Shown here in pieces: positions 37,085-63,301 of a DNA stretch of 64,000 bases (within the stretch, counting starts at the first letter, position 1; each line of letters begins with the position of its first letter). The notes beneath the pieces are model-generated. The model did not search any database, was not told the DNA's origin, and saw only the letters and a list, made by a program, of their open reading frames with translations. A program made the position numbers and the translations under genes. This DNA is from Elsinoe ampelina (lineage: Eukaryota), in assembly GCA_010093995.1 (NCBI GenBank), contig ML992509.1, forward strand, positions 728,178-792,177, read 5' to 3'.

Positions 37085-38831
37085 GGTGTGAAGGAGTAGA
37101 AGTTCAAATAGACGTTGTCGTGAAAGCTCCGCGGAGGTGTATGCAAGATGAGGTGAGCACGGCAGCACCGCAGCTGTCAAAAGCCACGCGCCTAGTCGGG
37201 GTCGCGTTTCTTCTCAAGCTTCACAGAGCGCGACGCCTGGTGTCCCCAAAGCAACTTTTGTGGGGTTGTGGGTAGCCAAGATCACTCTCCCGAATCGGCT
37301 CCGATGTGGACAGGTTCCGAAGGTCGCTGGCATCGTTTCTACTGCACCGACGTCGTCTTTGTGGTGGCAGAAGGATCACTGTTGGTCACGCTGTGCCGCT
37401 GACTGACCGACTTCTTGCCAGCCATCTGGCTTTAATGTTCATCACCGGCACACGGCCTGCCTCGATGCGGCCCGTGGAGTGAGACATGCACATGCAAGAT
37501 CCTTCTTCAATACGTGAGAATTACGAGCTTCTCTGAAACGGTCACAATTTTTGTGGTCGACCTCGTGGTCAAGGCCGAATTGGCTTCAAAACGTCGCGTC
37601 CACGAGGACATGTACAGTAGGACCTCTATATACCGTTAGCTGCGTGAATCGGCCGATTAACGGTATAGCCAAGATATCGGTGTGTCAAATAAGGTGGTGT
37701 AACTACTTTAAAACCTCTTAATTCTGTAGTCTATTACCTTATAAAGAACTTATAAATAGCTAGCTGCCTTATAGAGGCTCTTAAGTATACTTAAATAATC
37801 TTATAATACTTCTCTACCTCCTTTAGTAGCTTAAAGTTATACTCCTCCGACTGCTCCTTATATAGCTAAAGCTATGCTAGTGTAGTTAAAGCCTCTAAGT
37901 GCTTTATACACTAGAGTACCTCTACTGTCTTATTCTCTTCTTTATACTCTAGTATAGGTGTATATTACTTAGTAATAGAGAGAAGAAAGGCCTCTCTAAT
38001 CTCTTTATAAGTATCTTTAACCTCCTCTTTCTCCGGCTATAGTAGGCTAGCGATAGTTATTGCTAGATAGATAGTATTTCTAAGCTATAGAGTATATAGC
38101 TACTATTATACTTCTACTTCTATCTTCTAATTAATAGGCTTTAGTAGAGGAGCTTAGTTCTACTAGTGGAGTTACTCTCTTTACTACGCTTTAAAGGTAA
38201 GAAGGCCTTTAACCTTACTAAGAAGAGTTAAATAAAGCTAGTAATTAGTAATAGAAGTTACTAATACTTTATTCTAAGCCTAGAGAGTATTATAGATAGC
38301 CTTTAGTATATTAATTATTTTTATAGAATTATATAAGAGTTTAATCTTCTCTAGTATATAAGTAAGCTAGCGCTTCTAATAGTAGGCCTTAAAGTAGTAA
38401 ATAACCTCTTAATCTAGAGGCTAGTACTTACTTATAGAGTTTACTAGTAGCTAGATAATCTTAATATTAGTAACTTTATATTAAATTACTATAACTATAT
38501 ACTTATATACTAAGAAGTTATTAAGAAGAAGAGTAATCTAGAGGAGCAAATTTAGTATATATAGCTTATATAATATAAAATTGCTACTTACCTTCCTACT
38601 ACTTACCTTCTTATTTAACTACCTTAAGTACTCTTTAAAGATTAAACTAGTTATCTAAGATGTCTTATTTGCTTACTAGAATATATTCTAGCGCTTAATA
38701 TCGACTCTAGTAGCTTTAAAACACTATAGTACTTTAGTATTACTAATAATCTAAGGCTTTAGCTTATAGTTACTAGAGACATTATAAGTAAAAAGTACTA
38801 AGAGCCTCTTCTTACTACGCTTAGTACTAGG

Positions 38832-39034
38832 TAATACGAGATAGATACGAACTAGATTTAGTTAGGATCTAGTTTAGATTAGTTACGTAATCTTAGTATT
38901 ATAGTCTAAGCTTCTAGCCGCTTTACTCTCGATATTATATATACTTTATATACTAGCTTTTCTTCTTCTTCTTCTAAGTCTCGATATCTTAACGAATAGA
39001 CGTAATTAACCTCTTGTCTTACTAGTTGTAATTA
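38832..39034 (+). repeat. Gypsy 5' LTR
   Basis: Direct repeat of 44883-45085. The TA..TA termini are consistent with RIP-mutated TG..CA. Confidence 0.92.
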
Positions 39035-42000
39035 CTATATTAAGACTTTAAAGAAGCTATAACTAAGTAATAGAGCTATTAAACTATCTAGTTATTCTAC
39101 TACTTACGTAACTACTAATAACTACCACTTATAAAGAATTAAAAAAGAAGCTATTATAACTATAGTTCCTACGTACACTGTAATAGATCCTCGCTACTAC
39201 TATATAGGTTAATACTATAAACTCTAAAGATATAAGAAAAAGGTAATAAGTCGAGTTATAGACGACTCTTAAAGGAAGTAGGCTACTAGCTAAAAATTTT
39301 AATATTTTCTTTATTATGTATTAACTTTTTATATTGTTCTATTTACGACTAACTACGCTAAGTATAGCTCGATCTAACTATAGCGACGAAGAGCGCTACT
39401 AAAGTAAGCTACCTTAACCTATCCTCGATAATAATAACACCTCTATCTACTCTCTCTACTATAATCTTTTTACTCTCTTTAACGCTATACTCCTTAAGAA
39501 GCTATAGAAAGAGTATAGTATATAGGCACTAAGAGACGTATTTAACTATATTAAGTCCTTCTATAATAAGTAAACTACGTAGGTAAAAGGCGCTTATACC
39601 GACGCTCTCTACTATTACTATAAGTTAAATACTACTTAGGCCTAGCTTAGTAACCTCTAATCTAAACTAGACGTATCTTAGTCCTATACTAATAGCGTTA
39701 CTACCTAAGCTACTCGCTACCTAGACAAAATCTAAGAGCTTAAGGCTAAGGTAGACTAACTAAAAAACGAAATAGAGTATAGTATACTAGCTCTTTCTAT
39801 ACGTAGCTCTACCTTATTAGAAAAGATACTAGACTCTACTATCTTTAGTATAGGTACACTAGAGTAGTTTAAGGTCTTTAAGCACTAGATAAGGAATAAG
39901 ATACGCACTAACGTAGATCGTTTCTCTATAAGAGATACCTAGTTTACCTATCTATACTTATATCTCTCTAGAGAAGCTTATACCCTTATTATAGACTTAG
40001 CCGGTAACGATATTATTAGCGTTAAAGAGGTTCTTACTCTTCTAGCCTAGCGCTTCGAGGATCCTAACTATAGAGCTACTATATATACTTAGTTTACTAA
40101 TCTCTTCTAGCGTAATAGCACGTTTAACTCCTTTATTAGCGAGTTTAATAAGTACGCTCTTTACGCTAAGATTACTAAAGAGAAGTAGCTATACTAGATC
40201 TATTAGAAGATATCTAATAAGCTATATAATGCTCTAGTTAACTACGATACTAATAACCTTACTGCCTTTATTACTAAGGCCTACGCTACTAACTATAACA
40301 TCTAATAGAATAACCTTATGACTAAGTGCACTTAGGCTTTACGTTCTATACTAGCTATAAGCTACGCTACTACTATACCTACTCGCATACCTTATTCTAC
40401 CTCCGCGCCTATAGCTCTATCTACCTTTTACTCTATCGCTAAAGGTGCTCTATAGCCTTTTCGTCTAGCTCTAGTACTTATCTATTATATATGTAGTAAG
40501 CCTAGATATATCTCTACTAAGTGTATAGCTAGCGCCTTAGAGAAGGCTACTTACGCTACTATATACCTCGTACGTATTAGCGCTATAGAGGAGATATAGT
40601 AGCTCTAGAATCGCTTAGCCGAGTTAAGTAACTAGGTCGATACTAGTTCGGCTTACGAACTAGATTTAGTTAAGCCTTAGTTCGACCCCGAAATAGACTA
40701 TAAGCCTACTCGTTTCTCTAGCTAGAGAAACGAGTAGCCGGAGGACAAGTTCTATTCTCTAGCGAAATAAGAGTAATTCGAGATAAATCTAGAGATATAT
40801 AGTTACTAAATAGTGTTATTAGCTACTATATCCCTACTATTATAACTCCTATTACTATTTATAACCTCTATAACCGCTCGTGCACTATTATACTTTAAGC
40901 CTTTATCGACACTAGCGCGCTTATTAGCGCCGTAGTTAATTATAATATTCTTAATAAGCTAAAGAGCTTCGGCTACTCTATAGTACTAGCTAGTTCTATT
41001 TAGCTTTAAGCCTATAACGGTGTTCTAATAGAGTAAGTTATATATAGTATTCCCCTTACTACTACCGTTTCTAGTAAGCTAAATAACCTTACTACCTTTC
41101 GTATTATAGATATTAGCTAATTTAACATTATTCTTAGCCTCGGCTAGCTTAAGGCTAATAGGGCTACTATCGACTATAAGTATAGCTAAGTTATATATAA
41201 AGAAGAGTTTTCGCCGATAGTTGTTAAGTAAGAGCTACTATAGCTAATTAAAAGGCTAGAATCTAGATCTAAGCCTAGCTTAGATCTAGGAACCTAGCTC
41301 GGCAAAGCTACTATTTTAGTTTAGAATTAGTTCGGTCCTAGTTTAACACGTAAACTAGGTCCTAGCTCGGCTACTAAGATAGAGCGAACTAGACTATATC
41401 GACTACTAGCTCTTAGGTTGAACTTTAAGCTAAATTAGAGAGAGTTTAAGCTAATCTCCTATAGTACTTAGTTAATGTATAAGTTCTTCTACGTACTTAC
41501 CTATATAAGTAACACTAAGTAAGAAGAGCTAACTATCGCTTTTATTAGCGCTACTACCTTTATATTAGTAGCTAAATACTAAGAGAATAAGGTATTTATA
41601 ATCTTAGTAAAGAATATTAAAGACTACTACTAGATAGTCTCCAAGCTAGAACTAGATTCTATAGTAGTCCTCCTAGAGGAGTTATAGAAGTTTACTAATA
41701 TCTTCTCTAAAGAATAATCTAATATACTTCCTTAGTATCGGCCGGATTTTAACAACTGTATTATACTTAAAGATAGCGCTAAGCTACTACGTATAGAGCC
41801 TTTATACTACCTATCGCTAGAAGAACTTAATATAGTAGAATAATTCATCTAAGAATATCTTAATAAAGGCTTTATTACACTAAGTTCCGCTAGCTATTCC
41901 TTACCTATTCTCTTTATTCGTAAGCTAGGTAAAGGACTCTATCTCTACGTTAACTACTATAGCCTTAACAAGGTAACTAAGCGAGACATCTATCCTCTAC

Positions 42001-44882
42001 CTCTTATTAAAGAAACACTTACGCGCGTAAGTAAGGCTAAATAGTTTAGTAAGATCGACATCTATTAAGCCTTCTACTACCTCTATAACTCCGTCGATAG
42101 TAAAGATCTTACTATATTCTCTATATATATAGGCAACTTTAAGTAGCTAGTAATACTATTTAGCCTTACTAATGCCTCTATAGTCTAGTAGAGGTTTATA
42201 AATTATAACTTTGTTAATATACTAGAGTACTTCGTATCGATCTACCTAGATAATATTCTTATTTATATAAACGGCTCCTACTGAAAGTACGCTAAGTATA
42301 TTAAGCTAGTACTCTAGAGGCTCTACGAATTAGACCTAAACGCTAACATTAAGAAGAGTAAGTTCTACCTAATAGAGGTAAAGTATCTTAGTATTATTAT
42401 TGGCCGAGATAGAGTTAAAATAGATCTAAAGAAGATAGAAGCTATACGAGCCTAGAAATAGCTAGCTCCTAGTAATACTACTTAGGTAAGAAGCTTTATT
42501 AGTTTCTATAGCTACTATCGCCACTTTATTAAGGAATTTAGCACTATCACTAAGCCACTAAATAATCTCCTTAAGAAGGACACTATACTATAGAACGATA
42601 AGTGTACTACTATATTTAACTATATAAAGTATACTATTATAAGTGTACCTATCCTTATGTATTTTAATCGCTCGAAGTAGATAGTTCTTAAGACTAACGT
42701 CTCTAATACTACTACTGCTAGAATTCTATTATAATACGATAAGTCTAACGTTCTCTAGCCTATTACCTTTTTTAGTAAATCTATAAATAAAGCTAAATAT
42801 AACTACGCTATCTACGATAAGAAACTACTAGTAATTATCTAAGCCTTCGAGGAATAAGCCTTTAAGCTTATAAGCACTTAATCCGATAAGGCTATCTACG
42901 TCCTTACTAACTACTAATTCTTAATACACTTTATAAAGACTTAGAAGCTGTTACGCTACTAAGTACGCTAGGCTCTTTACCTTATGTAGTTTAACTTTAA
43001 GATTATATATAGGCCTAGCGCTACTAACGGTAAGGTCGATACACTTATAAGAAGAAATAGAGATATACTATATTCGAGAGAAGACTCTAATCTATACTAG
43101 ACGCTACTACTATATAAGGTGCTAGATTAGCGTATTATTAACGAACTAAATCTAGGTCGTATTCGAACTAGATTACTAATCTAAGCCGAACTAAGATCTA
43201 GTTTAGTATCTAGTTCGTAGACTAGTTTACTATCTAGTTTACTACCGATTTTACCTTCTATTTCGCTACCTATATTAGCGCCTATTTCGGCCGCTAAACT
43301 AGGTATCTACGTAGTACCTATCTTAGCTACGAAAGAACCTTTACTCCTTTTCGAAGAAGTAGCTAAAGCTAACTTACGAGACGCTAAGTGCGAAATAGTT
43401 AGAGGCATCTACTATATAATAGAGGCCTTTCTAAAGAGGAAATAGCTACTATCGAGCGATATTACTATTAATAAAGGAGTGTTATAGGTCGCCGGCTAAC
43501 TATTCGTACTATAGTTAATAGCTATAAAGGTTATCTAAGAAGTCTATATATCGAAGAACTATATATATAAAGGAGCTACTAAAACGGCTACTATAATTAA
43601 GACTACCTTTTATATCCTAAGCTATAATAACTTTATTAAGAGGTTCGTAGCTAACTATTATAACTATAAGCGCTTAAAGGCTTACTATAGCTTACTAGCT
43701 AGCCTCCTATTGCTATTACCTATTCCGGTAAGACCTTAGTAATATATTACTATAGACTTCGTTACTAGCCTACCTCTAGTAGATAGCTATAATATAGTAC
43801 TATATATTGTCGATTACTTGTCTAAGGAGCGACACTTAATCTCTTATCTCTAGAGAGAAGAAGAAACCTCTACGTTCGAGATAGCTAAGCTATTATTCTT
43901 CTATATATAGAAACTATATAGCCTACTAGATAGTATTACCTCTAACTACGGCTCTTAGTTCGTTAGCGACGTATAGAAGAGACTCTACTAGATCCTAAAG
44001 ATTATAGCTAAGCTATCTACTACTAGCTACCCTTAAATAGATAGCTAATTAGAAGTTATAAACCGAGAGTTTAAATAAGTTATTTAATTCTATATAATAT
44101 AGTTTAGTAATTAGACTCTTATTCTACTAGTTATAGAGTTCTCTATAAATGCTAACTCCTCGGAAAGTACTAAGCTATTACTATTTAAGGTAACTAGAGG
44201 ATATAAGCTAAGAATAAGCTTCTAGCCCCCTACTAACTTACTATTAATAAGAGCTAAGCTTAATAAGGCCGAAATTTACGCGCTTACTAAACAACTAGAA
44301 GAAGCTTTTACTATTACTAAAGCTAACCTTACTATTACTTAGTTACGAATAGTAGAGTAAGCTAATAAACACCGCTAGCTAATAGAGTTCGAAGCTAGCG
44401 ATTTAGTGTAGTTATTAACGAAAAACCTTCGGCTATAAGGCAATCTAAAGCTACTACTAAAGTATGTTAGTCCTTATAAGATCCTTAAAAAATAGTTGCT
44501 ATTAGTGTATAAGCTTAATCTACTAGCTACTCTATAAAGGATTTACTTTATATTCTATACTAACCTCCTTACTAAGTACTTAAATAACTCTCTACTAGGC
44601 TAAGCCTTTAAGGAACTACCTCTAGTAGAGATCGATAGTAAGAAAGAGTATAAGGTAGACAACGTAATTAATATATATATACTATAAGGGAAGCTAGTTA
44701 CTTATATAAGCTAGAAGAGCTATCTAGAGAATCTTACCTAGTAGCTAATCGACAACCTTAAAGGAGTAGCTAACGTGCTATATAACTATCTAGACTCTTA
44801 TATAAATAAGCTAAGGCCGAAATAAATTAATAAATAATATATAATAGTGTTTAAGAGTAAATATACTTAAGAGAGAGAGTAG

Positions 44883-45085
44883 TAATACGAGATAGATACG
44901 AACTAGATTTAGTTAGAATCTAGTTTAGATTAGTTACGTAATCTTAGTATTATAGCCTAGGCTTCTAGCCGCTCTACTCTCGATATTATATATACTTTAT
45001 ATACTAGCTTTTCTTCTTCTTCTTCTAAGTCTCGATATCTTAACGAATAGACGCAATTAACCTCTTATCTTACTAGTTGTAATTA
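44883..45085 (+). repeat. Gypsy 3' LTR
   Basis: Direct repeat of 38832-39034, followed by TSD CTAGG. Confidence 0.92.
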
Positions 45086-45390
45086 CTAGGTAGTAGTTAT
45101 AAGGCTAGAGAGTAATTAGGTATTATTATATAATAGAGACTAGTCTTATTAGTGTTATACTAATTATCTAAATAGTAGTACGATAAGTGCTCTTTTACCT
45201 TTATAAGCTCTTTAGTATACTTCTCTTTATTAATATTACTAGCCTTACTATAATAGATCCTCTACTTAATATTATATCTACTCTTAAAGCTAGTAAGCTA
45301 GCTATTAAAGAACTTTAGTATCTCTTAGTCTTTATACTAAGGTATTACCTTAAATAACCTCTTAGCTTACTCCTTTAAGAGAGCGCTAGT

Positions 45391-45590
45391 TAATACGAGA
45401 TAAATACGAACTAGATTTAGTTAGGATCTAGTTTAGATTAGTTATGTAATTTTAGTATTATAGCCTAGGCTTCTAGCTACTTTACTCTTAATATTATATA
45501 TGCTTTATATACTAGCTTTTCTTCTTCTTCTTCTAAGTCTCGATATCTTAACGAATAGACGTAATTCTCTTGTCTTACTAGTCGTAATTA
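45391..45590 (+). mobile_element. Solo LTR of the same Gypsy family
   Basis: Third LTR copy (200 bp, 3-bp deletion) with its own TSD CTAGT at 45386-45390 and 45591-45595. Confidence 0.92.
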
Positions 45591-47076
45591 CTAGTTACTA
45601 GTATTAGCTACTTAATTTTTAGCTACTACTAGAAGAGTATAGTCTCTAGCTCTAGAAGGTACTCTATTCTTCTTCTTTTACTATTAGGCTTAGCCTTATC
45701 TCTAGCCTTATAGTACTTCTAGCGGATAATATCGGAGATAGTAGATTAATAGATAGTATAACTCTAGAGGCAGCTAAAGTAATTAGCTAGCTACTACTAG
45801 CTATAGTAAGAATACTCTTTATAGCGCTAGATAACTACTACCTTCTAGCTAGCGGTAATAGTATTCCTTAGAGGCATAACGACTAACAATTAAATAGGCT
45901 GTTAGTACTAAAATTAGCACTTTATATATTAATAAAGAGCTTAGTTAACAAACGGATTAGTATAACAAGAGAGTAGCTTATTTGGTAGTAAAAAAAACAG
46001 TAAATTGTAACTCTAACGGAATAACCAAGATAACGGTATATAAACTAACGGTATATGCAGGTCCTACTGTAACACTGAAAATTGACTGGACACGAGGACT
46101 ATTCTCGCACGTCAAGAAGTGTGGTCTTGATGCCAGACCAAGTGCTCCTGCCACTCCGATTGGTCAACCGGCTGAAGTGGCAGAGAAGCAGGAGCGCGCA
46201 GGTGCGCGGTTGCTGTTTTTGGGCTTGCGGGTTCCACTTTGTTTGAGAGACACATCGATGAGATCAGTCCATCCAGATTCCGCGACAGCAAACGACACGC
46301 AATGCTAGCCAGTTCCCGTCCCGTAGATGCACTTTCGGAAAGCTTGGCTCACTGGTAGTTTGATCATAATGTTGTCTCGCCTACCAAAAATACAAGAAGT
46401 CTATGCCTGCCCATCTGCTTTGCCAATTGACCGCCAATTCTCACCACCCCCACTGCCCTACTCCTCGTACTACGGGCTAACAACCTGCCCGAGTGAGATT
46501 CGCTTTCTCACTTCAACTGGGCGCCAAGCAGACAATAGAGGCTGAGGGGATCGATTACGCACACGAGATCCCGCGCGAACTGACCTCCTGGGCTCCTGGG
46601 CTCAAAAAGATCAAGCTGATCATCCCCAGCGGCGCCAAAAGGCACCGAACGCTGCAACGTGGATCACCCGCATCTCCGTCGTCATCCGCGTATTTCCACT
46701 TCGGCCATAGACTAAAGTAGTCCAAAGGTCTTTACACCAGCCTCCTGCGACTATTCTCTCCTCCTTGGAATCGTCTCATTCGTGGTGGTTGATCTGTCCA
46801 GCACTGCACATTCGTTTCTCCGTCTGGATCCGCGTTACAAACACATCACCGCAAGTCCTTTAGGATCGTTGCGGCTCAACGTAATTCTGGCTTCATCTGC
46901 ACGAAACGTCTAGCATAGGATACAATCTCCGAGAAGGATTCTGGCTGAGCCGATACTTGACATAAATCTCTTGAACAAAGACAAGCCATCAGAGGCCGTG
47001 CAAGATAGCCACGCTGGCGCTTACAGAAAATTGAAGAGAAGTCACTTCCGCGAGAGCCGCGGGCCGTTTTGTCACG

Positions 47077-57920: not shown

Positions 57921-60900
57921 TGTCAACCGAGGTATAAGCTAGAGCGCCAAGAAGGACCCTGATTCAGTTCATCCCTTGGTGGAACTAAACACTTATCCAC
58001 TACTCTACCAATTCATAATTAAATTAGATAGTTATTGTCTTAATCTGTTGTTACTTAGGAGTTCTATTGATTTATCTATCTCTTAGTTTATTAGGTTAAG
58101 TATTTATGTAGTTATAATCTACCTTAGTTTAGTAGATTAGGCAGTAATTAATCCTTTTTCCTCCCCTATACAAGTTAACAGTTATAAGCCCGGTATAACT
58201 ACCCCTATACAAGCACATTACTTAGTTGCTTTCCTACTCTATTTATTAGTCAATTCTCTACTATCTTGCTTTTTAAGTATTAGAATCTATTAAGAACTGC
58301 CTTAACTATAACTATAGGATTTAGGTATTAATAAGGAGATAAATAACTATAGATACTAATACCTTAATAGCTAGAACACCTATTATTCTTACTACATTAG
58401 CTAAATAGGCTAGCTAGCTATATATTATTAAGACAAGAGCATTAAATACTAAGATATAGGACCTTATTAATCCCTAGAAGACTATTAAACTAGAAGGGCT
58501 CCCTAAGCCTTAAAGGCTAGAAGTAGTAAATGTTAACTTCTTAGCACTCTTCTAGATATATAAGAAGGAACAAGCATAGTATAATAAATAGCTTAAGGCC
58601 TTAGCAGATCTTATAAGCCTTATTTAGTTATTAATTACACTATAAGTTCTTACTATTATCTAACTAGAAGAGGATCCTTACCTATAGACTATTCTTCGAG
58701 CCTTAAAAAACAGATTTGCTCTATCTAATATAGCTATTTAGCTCGAGGTTAAGGCACTCTAGAGGAAGTAGCTATCTAGCTCTTCCTTATAGAATATAGA
58801 CTATTAGCTTTAGTAATAGAAAGAGGTTATAGACAAGGCTAGGAACTATAATCTACTAGAAGCTTAAGGCTTAAGGCTATAGAGAGACTTCTTACTTTCT
58901 ATCTTAAAAACTAAACTAGTATTTACTAATAAATACCTTATTAATCTAGATTTACTAACTCTACTAACTATGCTTAAACTAATTACTAAGTTTAGATAGT
59001 TTTATAAACTCTATAAGCTATATAGTACTATAAAGGCTAGTAAGGGGGCTACGGTCTTCCCTATAGCTACTAAGAATATTCTTTATAAGAAACCTAGTTC
59101 CCTTAGAGAGCCTAAATGTATATACTAAGGCCGGCATAAGTAAATTAAGTACTATTACTTAAATAAGTATCTAAGGCTAGAAGGATAGACACTAAACTAG
59201 TAGACTATAAAGGAGGTTAAATAAAGGCTAAATAATAAGACTCTTAAAGAGAGAATTAAGGCTTCTATTACTAAGGAAGTATAACATTAGAAGGGGTTAA
59301 CCCTACTAGTGTTAATTAACATAGCTATTACTATTAGATTACACTTAGTATTTATCTTAGCTACTACTAACATCTTAAGCTTATAGATACTAGATTCTAG
59401 AGTAACTAATTATATCTATAATTATACTATAAAGGACAGATATAAGGTTACTAGAATTATAGAACCTTATAAGAAGCTATTCTATAGTAATACCTTACTT
59501 AGTATTAAGAGTTAGAGAACTATTAATATTATAGCTCTTTATAAAGAAAAGCCTATAACTATCTATCTTATAAAGGTAGCCTATATACTATTAATTATAA
59601 CTAATCTAGTTAGCCTTAGGAGGTTTATTAATAGTAGAGTCTACTAGAATACTTAAACTATAGAGATTAGCTATAAAGGAAAAGTACTCTTCTTAGTTAT
59701 ACTAAAGCATAACTAATATATTCTTAAGGATAACTCTAAAGCTCCTAATGTTACTACTATAGTATTAAGAGATAATAATAATTGTCTACTATTAGTATTT
59801 ACTATAGTTACTACAAGGACTAATTAATCTTAGTATAAAGTTATAGGCTATCTAAGTCTAGAGTCTGTTAATTACCTTCTAACTACTATAGTTAGTAGTA
59901 AACTAACTCTAACTAAGCCTAGTTTAGCTTAACTAATTTATCTTAGGTCTCTATATTAGACTTGTAAGCTATTAAATACTTAGTAGATTATATTAAGGAG
60001 TCTTAACAATAAACTTGCTATATTAAAGCTATTTAAGAGAACTACCTTTAATATTATTATTAACAGATTTACTAGCTATAATAAGGTAAGATATATAAGC
60101 TACTTTACTTATAGAACTACTAACTATTAACTAGTTACTACCTATACTTATAGATATAAGATTAATAAAAATCTGCATTAAGATAATTACTTATATTAAA
60201 AGCAATCTTAGCTTTAAAATTAGATTCCTTAGGAGTAACAATAAGAGGGCCTTTAGCCTTAAATTTACTATCTTTCTAGATAGTAAAGAAATCTATTATA
60301 AGCTATCTACTCTCTATACTTAAGCTTAGAATAGTTATAATAAAAGGATAGGAGCTATACTATTAAGAAGAGTAAGGGCAATTACTATCTTTACTAATCT
60401 ACTAAGGGAATTATACTCTAAACTATATAGATTAGTAGCCTATCTAATTAATAGAACACCTCTTAAGAAGCTAGACTAGAAGACTCCCTTTAAGCTAGTT
60501 TATAGATACCCTCTATTAGTTGCTTATCTTAGGCTACTTAGATATAAAGCTTATACTTTAGATAAGCTAATTATAAATAGTAACAAGCTTACACTAAGAG
60601 CTTACATTAGCTATCTAGTTAGCTATAACTTAACTAACATCTTTAGGATCTTTATACTAGCCTCTAAGAAGGTTATTAGAATAAGAGATGTTAGATTTAA
60701 TAAAACTTAGTTCTATAAGCTAGAGGAATAACCTTAGCTAAAACTAATTAGATTACTTAATCTACTAAGGCTTCTATAGGAGGTTAATAAATCTAAAGAG
60801 GTACATAAAGTAGAGGGAATAACTAAACTAAATCTAGTCTAGAATCTAGTTTAGTATCTAGTTTAGAATCTAGTTTAGAATCTAGTTTAGTAGCCGAACT

Positions 60901-63301
60901 AGATACTATCTTAGACTCTAAGTTAGAGCAATCTAGATTAAGAGCTAAGCCTATCTTAGTAGCCTAATAAGGGTTACCCTATTACACTAGATTAGTTACT
61001 ACCTCTATTAGACTAATTAGATAAGGCTATTCTAGATCTAAACCTAGCTTAGATCTAGGAATCTTTACTAAATAAATAGTTCTTTAATGCTCTAGCCTTA
61101 CTACTATCTATAGTAGTATAGCTATCTCCTCTACTACTAGGAGGAGATAAAGCTAAAGGAGATAAGATAGAAGTTTAGACTAAAGGGATAGTTAAAGCTT
61201 AGCCTAAGTAACTCCCTTAAAGAATTACTATAAGGTTAGCTAACCTTTTTCCTAAATATATCTTTATAATAAAGAGAATAAGAAAACTAAGAAGGTAAGT
61301 ATATATTACTACTCTTATATAAACTAATAAGGCTCCTAGATATTACTAAGCCTTTAATGCTTATCTATTAATAACACTAACTTAGCCTAAGCTAGAATTA
61401 AGAGATAATCTTCTACTACTACTAGCTAATATTAGAGAACTTAAGGCTTATTCTTATAAGAAGCAATTTTAAGAGGCTATAAAGGTTAAATTACTTACTT
61501 TACACTTAAAACATATATAGACTATTATACTAGTAGCTTAAGCTACTAATAAGCCTGTCTCTTTAATATAGATATTTACCTATAAAGTTAATAATAAAGA
61601 AGAGATTATAAAGTATAAAGTAAAAGTCTATATAAGAGATAATCTCTAATTAATAGAATCTAAGACTTATATAGCAACTCTAGTAGCTAAGATCTTTAGA
61701 ATGCTTATAGCATTACTTACTTATAAAGACATAGAGGCTATCTAGATAGATGTTATTAATGCCTATATTAATAGTCCTATTAATAAGACTATCTACTATA
61801 CTATCCTTACTAGATTTAAGCTAGTTATAGAGGATCTTATAAAGGACTATCCTAGCATTACTCTATTAGATGTACTTCTACTGCTTAATAAGGCACTATA
61901 TAGCCTAAAGTAAGCCCTAGCTCTCTAGTATACTAAATTCACTACTACTCTAAAGGGCATTAGATTTACTTAAGCCTCTAAGGCTCTATGCCTCTAAATA
62001 ACACCTAAAGTAATAATCTTCTTCTTTGTAAATAACATTACTATTATATATCTTAAGAAGCACAAGGAGAAAGCTAATACTATTATTATAGCCCTCTATA
62101 CTAAATATAAGATAAAGGTACTTAGAGATCTAAGCTAGTTTCTAGCTATCTAAGTTATAAGGGATAGACTAATAAAGAGACTCTAGCTTAGCTAAGCCTA
62201 GTATATACAACAGATATATAGTAAGTTTATTATAGAACTAATAAGGCTAGTATTAATACTACTACTAATTAAGATACTTTAACCTTATAAAGGCTAAGTA
62301 TTACTATAAGAGATCTACCTATATTAGTAAAAGATAAAATCTATTAACTTTATAGCAGTTATTATAAGGCCTAATATAGCCTTTGCTACTTCTAGATTAT
62401 TAGAGTATCTAATAAATCTATTACTAACTTACTAGAGAATAGTAAATAGAGTAATCTAATATCTCTATAAAACTAAGAATTTAGCTCTTACCTTTAATAG
62501 CTTAATACTACTAATCTTTTAAGCTTTATTAGATACTAGCTTTAGTAGCCACCTAACAAGGAAGAGCCTTTAAGGCTATCTCTTTAAGATGTTTTAAGGA
62601 TTAATTAACTAGAAGGCTATAAAGCAACTAATAGTTACAACATTAACTATAGAGGCTAAGCTACTTACTCTTATAAAGACTACTAAGTAAGCTATGTAGT
62701 AGAGGAGGCTAATAGCCTCTATCTATCCCCTTAAGTATATTAGTATTTAGTGTAATAATTAGTAAACAATTAGCCTTATTACTAGTCTAATTAAGAAGCT
62801 TAATATACGCCTTTATTATATTAATATCTATTATTACTAGCTAAGACAAGAGATTAATCTAGCTAGAGATCTATCTAGCCCTATCTTAGTAACATAGACA
62901 CTATTAGTAGACACCTTAGCTAATAGATTAACTAAGTTATTGCTACCTAGAAGGTATAAGGCCTTCTTATAATAGCTATCTCTCGAGTTAGTAGTTCACT
63001 AACTAGCTATAACAGCCTTATAGCTATTTAGTGAAGGGGTGTGTCAACCGAGGTATAAGCTAGAGCGCTAAGAAGGACCCTAATTTAGTTTATCCCTTAG
63101 TAGAACTAAACACTTATCTACTACTCTACCAATTCATAATTAAATTAGATAGTTATTGTCTTAATCTATTATTACTCAGGAGTTCTATTAATTTATCTAT
63201 CTCTTAGTTTATCAGGTTAAGTATTTATATAGTTACAATCCACCTCAGTTTGGTGGATCAGGCAGTAATCAATCCTTTTTCCTCCCCTACACAAGTCAAC
63301 A
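57921..63301 (+). mobile_element. Full-length Ty1/Copia LTR retrotransposon, RIP-inactivated
   Basis: 260-bp TG..CA LTRs at 57921-58180 and 63042-63301, with TSD GAATC (57916-57920, 63302-63306). PBS-like GTTATAAGCCC and PPT GAAGGGG. De-RIPed order is PR WILDSG (~59385), IN RSDNE (~60230), RT FVDD (~62025), RNaseH ADGLTK (~62920). Confidence 0.94.
60832..60891 (+). repeat. Five tandem 12-bp units (ATCTAGTYTAGW) in the Copia IN-RT linker
   Basis: Read directly from the sequence; followed by an inverted copy CCGAACTAGAT at 60894-60904. Confidence 0.9.

Follow-up and report, generated by a model that had tools for sequence, protein, structure and literature searches.

A CCAAT-like box and a 27-bp dyad shared by Gypsy and Copia retrotransposons of Elsinoe ampelina: a candidate composite DNA site

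Two RIP-killed retrotransposons and the segment they share

The window considered here, a stretch of 64,000 nucleotides from the fungus Elsinoe ampelina, holds two LTR retrotransposons of different superfamilies, Gypsy-A and Copia-A (Table 1), both with a RIP composite index of about 2, which marks them as heavily RIP-mutated DNA. In Gypsy-A, pol lies in the -1 frame to gag; gag ends at 40706-40737, and the junction from which pol continues reads GGGAAA or GAAAC depending on the copy and resembles a slippery site. A third copy of the Gypsy-A LTR (93% alike) is found at 45386-45593, 300 bp past the element, which is itself nested in other RIPed DNA of unassigned type (37651-38826). Short repeats of the CTAGTTYRG type, which look like one half of the dyad described below, occur in the Copia-A linker (60819-60897), in the linker between RNase H and integrase of Gypsy-A (43172-43248), and in the Gypsy-A LTR (44901-44928), the first of these being a 12-bp tandem array whose length varies by copy (anchor-to-core distance, 315-480 bp). 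Copia-A and a second Copia family of the genome, Copia-B, carry primer-site-like sequences matching the complement of the anticodon arm in the host initiator tRNA-Met; the gene for this tRNA, which ARAGORN did not detect, seems to have a D-arm intron.

The initial annotation had singled out a pair of 31-mers, at 41262-41292 in the Gypsy element and at 61031-61061 in the Copia element, and both are indeed present there, with one G/A difference as the sole departure from identity (30/31). The Gypsy copy is the perfect 12-bp inverted repeat that it had been taken for, the Copia copy consists of 10-bp arms around a 7-nt centre, and the heptamer AAGGCTA, described as preceding both, does so, but at a distance of 3 nt in Gypsy and 1 nt in Copia. 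Protein searches with X at stops, together with reading of the frames, bear out the element types and the linker positions given for the two copies. The likeness extends well upstream, in that Gypsy 41244-41295 aligns to Copia-A 61013-61064 over 54 columns at 85%; this extension to a CCAAT-like box had been missed, as had two further families with the motif and the probable origin of part of the perfect symmetry in RIP.

Table 1. Retrotransposons, shared segment, and associated features (positions in the window unless a locus is named)
Feature	Position	Strand	Basis or remark
Gypsy-A, RIP-killed Ty3/Gypsy retrotransposon	38831..45088	+	protein searches, alignment
Gypsy-A LTRs	about 38831-39037 and 44882-45088	+	97% alike
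CCAAT-like box, Gypsy-A, RIPed GCTAATTA	41243..41250	+	C at -19 from core; letters only compatible with CCAAT
Whole shared segment, Gypsy-A	41244..41295	+	alignment to Copia-A
27-bp dyad core, Gypsy-A protease-RT linker	41263..41289	+	arms 12 bp, centre 3 nt; first motif base on codon position 2
Copia-A, RIP-killed Ty1/Copia retrotransposon	57921..63301	+	5-bp target duplication GAATC
CCAAT-like box, Copia-A, RIPed ACTAATTA	61012..61019	+	C at -19 from core; letters only compatible with CCAAT
27-bp dyad core, Copia-A integrase-RT linker	61032..61058	+	position 11 is A; first motif base on codon position 1
Primer-site-like sequences	58180-58200; locus L109 2815-2835; locus L126 1469-1580		

Recurrence of the dyad across families

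The dyad core spans 27 bp, with the observed range CYRGATCYRARC-CYR-GCTYRRWTCYRG, and occupies eight non-homologous sites, seven of them spread over two Gypsy and two Copia LTR families and one in a probable Gypsy-B leader. Gypsy-A and Copia-A have one site each; Copia-B (about 40 copies, RVT_2 by Pfam) has one in the protease-integrase linker and another, 1135 bp away, in the integrase-RT linker; and Gypsy-B (2 copies, RT_RNaseH by Pfam) has two sites 60 bp apart before RT and one in the 3' region, the eighth site, upstream of a gag-like stretch without Pfam typing, probably belonging to this family as well. All eight sites share one orientation, which in the four typed families corresponds to the sense strand. 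Genome-wide, 119 matches are found at up to 3 mismatches and none with the reversed control, and host unique DNA yields two weak non-RIPed matches among 100 listed of 110, compared with one for the control. Protein relatives of the elements are 31-38% identical at best, and no motif-like linker peptide was seen by eye in 10 of the 102 proteins.

Several local peculiarities accompany this distribution. The centre base (position 14) is reversed from C to G in three copies (L062 ~5010, L069 ~5019, L143 ~300), either by micro-inversion or by recurrent transversion, and one Copia-B subfamily has a diverged site-2 dyad with another centre between the same CCAAT-like flanks (L083 6105, L089 9222, L092 3847). 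In the Copia-B copy at L109 5805-8654 a 1420-bp block is doubled at 99.5% across an N run, which is likely an assembly artefact. Pfam typing of two other repeat pieces in the control set gave one blank and one weak match to a Plavaka transposase (E 0.006), the latter in motif-free RIPed DNA beside a Copia-A fragment (L070 1-2100).

RIP lowers the bar for coincidence, and the likeness might in principle be a chance resemblance of low-complexity linkers brought about by RIP or by similar peptides. RIP does create chance palindromes: a perfect one of 32 bp lies at 40706-40737, over the end of the Gypsy-A gag, and can be recognized as a RIP-made accident because no more than a single one of 37 Gypsy-A copies has it in perfect form. 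Moreover, BLAST among Gypsy-A, Gypsy-B, Copia-A, and Copia-B returns just two matches, both between Gypsy-A and Copia-A, and the second, of equal E-value, stems from short tandem repeats. Against coincidence stand the surrogate sequences drawn from Markov-2 and Markov-5 models trained on RIPed DNA of the same genome (60 pairs each), in which the longest match with at most one mismatch was 17-22 and 18-24, respectively, as compared with 31 between the real elements; a dinucleotide-shuffle null run on the window gave no such match at all, in agreement with the initial view that the match exceeds what RIP would produce. A non-redundant RIPed set of 56 pieces (99,351 bp), gathered from loci fetched around motif matches, over-represents motif-carrying families and so speaks to the uniqueness of the 27-mer, not to the prevalence of families; in it the Gypsy 27-mer, with TA read as YR, finds 2, 5, 7, 8, and 8 distinct sites as the permitted mismatches rise from 1 to 5. 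Among 2491 control 27-mers from the same elements, 2294 have no other site at 4 mismatches and 4 have at least three sites, three of these four (those printed) overlapping the motif itself. The codon phases, moreover, differ between families, and the central CCCGG is un-RIPed in three of the four. The recurrence at eight sites set against the 2491 controls refutes the coincidence reading, which retains hardly any probability.

How the sites came to be alike is a separate matter. Convergence, one of the two origins that had been proposed, is unlikely, and exchange between families is the likely one, since point mutation will not produce eight separate 27-bp sites by convergence. Template switching during reverse transcription is a known route to LTR chimeras, as described in PMC1950507, and would keep the sites in a common orientation.

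Effect of RIP and level of constraint

All copies seen are CpA-saturated, and a genome search for an un-RIPed copy with a purine/pyrimidine-only pattern gave 125 matches, with no intact CpA site among the 100 listed. The pre-RIP state can nevertheless be read in part from surviving letters. Core positions 19-20 are CG in 11/58 AAGC-type matches and in 0/27 AAAC-type matches; this CG is seen in some Gypsy copies and in no Copia-A copy, including a Copia-A subfamily that keeps CG at positions 14-15 in 8/9 copies and has it at 19-20 in 0/9, and Copia-B has CA there. At positions 8-9, Copia-B site 2 has CG, a single Copia-A copy has TG, and 38 Gypsy-A copies have nothing but TA. The surviving CG letters lead us to infer at least one additional difference between the two reported copies before RIP. 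RIP inflates the identity between Gypsy and Copia, and the arms of Gypsy-A were probably imperfect until RIP perfected the palindrome; three TA pairs in the core remain uninformative on the earlier state. As for the CGG triplets at fixed spacing that serve as the criterion for Zn(II)2Cys6 proteins, the central CCCGG is common and the outer CCG/CGG are present in some families only.

The dyad is read in different codon phases by the different families: motif position 1 falls on codon position 1 in Copia-A (37 copies with anchor), on codon position 2 in Gypsy-A, in Copia-B site 1, and in both Gypsy-B linker sites, and on codon position 3 in Copia-B site 2 (12 copies with anchor), the phase being constant within the anchored copies of each Copia family. 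Since all three phases are used, the constraint acts on nucleotides. Between Copia-A subfamilies of 80-89% identity, the core window differs by 1 transversion and the adjacent windows by 2-8 plus gaps, so that the core forms a conserved island. The Gypsy-A core is likewise kept in subfamilies at 73% identity, which is no evidence by itself because the neighbouring windows are conserved too. The proposal of a common cis-element is thus supported at the nucleotide level, with a site for a dimeric factor or an RNA hairpin as its putative role, the core offering no covariation for the latter.

A transferred cassette may nonetheless have been kept as a stem-loop, or as a protein-bound single-stranded RNA or DNA signal in genomic RNA, antisense RNA, or minus-strand cDNA, with a part in packaging, dimerisation, localisation, or translation control, a possibility that we regard as doubtful. 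The single orientation of all eight sites would suit such a signal, yet it is explicable by template switching alone. The fixed mismatches at 11/17, 7/21, 8/20, and 5/23, which are A.C on the sense strand, become G.U on the antisense strand, with T7.G21 in Gypsy-B as a counter-example, whereas those at 6/22 are true mismatches and tell against an obligatory stem. One Copia-A subfamily has a new 8-bp flanking stem of its own (p 0.04, uncorrected), but flank pairing reaches p<0.05 in only 6/17 related contexts, two of which are Copia-B site 2; there the core folds at just -2 to -5 kcal/mol, and the flanks, being direct repeats of CCAATCA type, pair only once RIP has acted. Among 16 distinct representative cores, covariation of the 12-pair stem is 0.076 as against 0.094 in shuffled data (451/500 shuffles as high), and two-sided change is confined to 1 pair, in the RIP direction, in a test of low power because RIP erased 5 dinucleotides. 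The folding energies of the sense and antisense strands give no steady winner, and Rfam returns no match at gathering score, the best reaching 19-22 bits where the cut-offs are 77-176.

Beyond this genome, the degenerate 27-mer is found neither in viral contigs (0) nor in prokaryote genomes (0), and its 11 matches in metagenome contigs all fall in one orthologous leader, with no retroelement among them. The leader belongs to an intron-bearing fungal gene identified from its DEAD-box translation, which we take to be eIF4A, and holds the 27-mer in reverse orientation about 27 nt before the start codon. In such leaders of other filamentous fungi, the 27-mer fitting the pattern is a 15-bp hairpin with two G.U pairs, which favours a stem-loop; the motif is absent from the host's own eIF4A leader, which does not. 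An exact-pattern scan selects invariant cases, and the eIF4A match could be one chance event; we keep it as a lead because this single match is both fungal and conserved. The eIF4A-like leaders of several filamentous fungi contain, about 27 nt ahead of the start codon, an invariant hairpin of 33-34 nt (L113-L123, e.g., L116 4999-5031) that has no Rfam match and is possibly an autoregulatory leader element.

The upstream box and a candidate composite site

Upstream of 113/142 core sites there is an R-C-YR-AT-YR box, which within 25 bases is confined to the offsets -19 (58), -18 (38), and -17 (17), with a background of 0.00057 per position; these counts stand for four independent contexts, in which the spacer between box end and core is 14, 14, 13, and 12 bp and differs in sequence. 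A further such box lies at +34 in 57 Copia-B sites. Real CCAAT letters survive only in Copia-B, where CCAAT and CCAATCA stand on both sides of the core as direct repeats and where site 1, with CA at -17 in 2/37 copies and at -13 in 5/37, agrees with the consensus CCAATVR. Gypsy-A (38/38) and Copia-A (20/20) show only RIPed CTAAT, and one Gypsy-A copy has TG where that consensus excludes T. No box is present at the -19 to -17 offset in two Copia-A subfamilies and in the Gypsy-B sites.

The fungal CCAAT complex is described as covering 13 nt downstream of a box with the consensus CCAATVR (PMC7144946), and Yap5 sites as lying 10-14 bp from a CCAAT box (PMC5471220); the 12-14-bp spacer fits both the footprint and the spacing reported in these sources. 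The CBC:HapX and CBC:Yap5 composites, as described there, resemble the cassette in joining a CCAAT box to another site that follows 10-14 bp downstream, immediately after the 13-nt footprint. They differ in that their second site is RWT/TKAN or TTACTAA and not a 27-bp dyad, and in that they lie in host promoters, the cassette lying inside transposon ORFs. Identity with either was considered and rejected: under the CBC:HapX rule CSAAT-N12-RWT (as given in PMC7144946), RWT stands at N12 in 0/4 contexts, with AAT/ATT at N11, N11, and N10 in three of the four, and for CBC:Yap5 the spacing of 12-14 bp fits but the partner sequence is not the YRE TTACTAA.

On the strength of these sequence patterns, the explanation that we favour, with a probability of about 0.4, is that a cassette of about 50 bp, made up of the CCAAT-like box, a 12-14-bp spacer, and the 27-bp dyad, spread by template switching and was kept as a candidate composite DNA site for the CCAAT complex and a dimeric factor. 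The cassette would have been copied between co-resident LTR retrotransposon families while these were active, most likely by reverse-transcriptase switching between co-packaged RNAs, and would have landed where a few arbitrary residues are tolerated, in polyprotein linkers and non-coding parts. It may have been retained as double-stranded DNA, the box being bound by the CCAAT-binding complex and the dyad, immediately past the footprint of that complex, by a dimeric factor, and may have acted as an internal enhancer or promoter; RIP would later have erased some of the differences between copies. Variation of the arms without compensation counts for a DNA site. Counted against it are the absence of the box at its offset in some contexts, the failure of the HapX rule in all four, and the fact that a shared box is also expected from passive co-transfer. 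Furthermore, the fixed asymmetry is one-sided (A11 in 33 sites, its mirror T17 in 1), which is not what a symmetric homodimer predicts and speaks for a single-stranded role, and host unique DNA lacks the dyad, which would leave a host factor without obvious targets in the host.

A further proposition is that the cassette has no function and that its dyad stalls reverse transcriptase or promotes recombination, spreading and re-homogenising through switching or gene conversion, which we consider unlikely. Box and AAGGCTA are common to Gypsy-A and the Copia-A subfamily of the window but not to the sister subfamilies of the latter, a pattern that suggests renewed exchange about a core both already had; a further 14 upstream bases are shared by Gypsy-A with Copia-B site 1; and the reversed centre base is as expected from micro-inversion. 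The motif is absent from at least two other Gypsy fragments that take in the region upstream of RT and is therefore dispensable for some families. On the other hand, box and core are kept in four contexts while the spacer between them has diverged, and two families carry the cassette more than once. Inspection of 30 Gypsy-A and 30 Copia-A loci (30 of 119 and 30 of 100 first-look candidates) for MITE-like insertion revealed no target-site duplication or empty site, although RIP and age could hide them.

A more far-reaching form of the composite-site explanation, which we hold to be quite improbable, is a cross-superfamily regulon, in which Gypsy and Copia elements would have captured the CCAAT-plus-dyad module in their ORFs to answer one factor with almost no host targets, possibly a zinc-cluster protein encoded by a retrotransposon or a factor that also reads the eIF4A-leader likeness. 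Two other candidates were rejected. The TFIIIC B box has a GTTCRA core with invariant T and A; the half-sites of the dyad read GGYTCRRWTC, most of them with C in place of the first T and G in place of the A, letters that RIP cannot create, and no core variant reads GGTTCRA. The core also resembles the complement of the host tRNA-iMet over 10 bases, but this likeness needs an unseen TG and is broken by the A11 variant.

The nearest known case is the GalEa elements' Conserved Hairpin Site, or CHS (PMC5445492), which, as presented in that source, is likewise a short palindrome or hairpin conserved between retrotransposon families of one fungal species, with its function inferred from conservation. 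The CHS is described there as having 9+9 bp, with CTGATCAGT/CTAATTAGT plus complement, as replacing the primer-binding site right after the 5' LTR, and as belonging to one Copia clade, whereas the present dyad lies 2-4 kb inside the elements, chiefly within coding linkers, and occurs across Gypsy and Copia; identity of the two was rejected since the dyad is internal in all families and since in Copia-A and Copia-B the LTR is followed by a site complementary to tRNA-iMet. With the template-switch chimeras of LTR elements described in PMC1950507 the cassette shares the movement of sequence between retroelements in reverse transcription or recombination, but those chimeras fuse two whole parents, whereas here an internal cassette of about 50 bp crosses superfamilies and recurs at unrelated positions. 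Pattern scans of the genome and of viral, prokaryote, and metagenome sequences found no natural un-RIPed retroelement with the motif, and a literature search thin on subscription journals found no report of it.

Gypsy and Copia are treated as independent lineages with only protein ancestry in common, and sequence is reportedly moved between retroelements in the mosaic cis-regulatory evolution of HERVH. A cassette handed on among four families and retained in three frames would show exchange between superfamilies together with a shared control input hidden in coding DNA. It also provides a short, testable probe for the switching-on or packaging of fungal retrotransposons and, when set beside the palindrome at the end of the Gypsy-A gag, an example of how palindromes made by RIP can be told from real ones.
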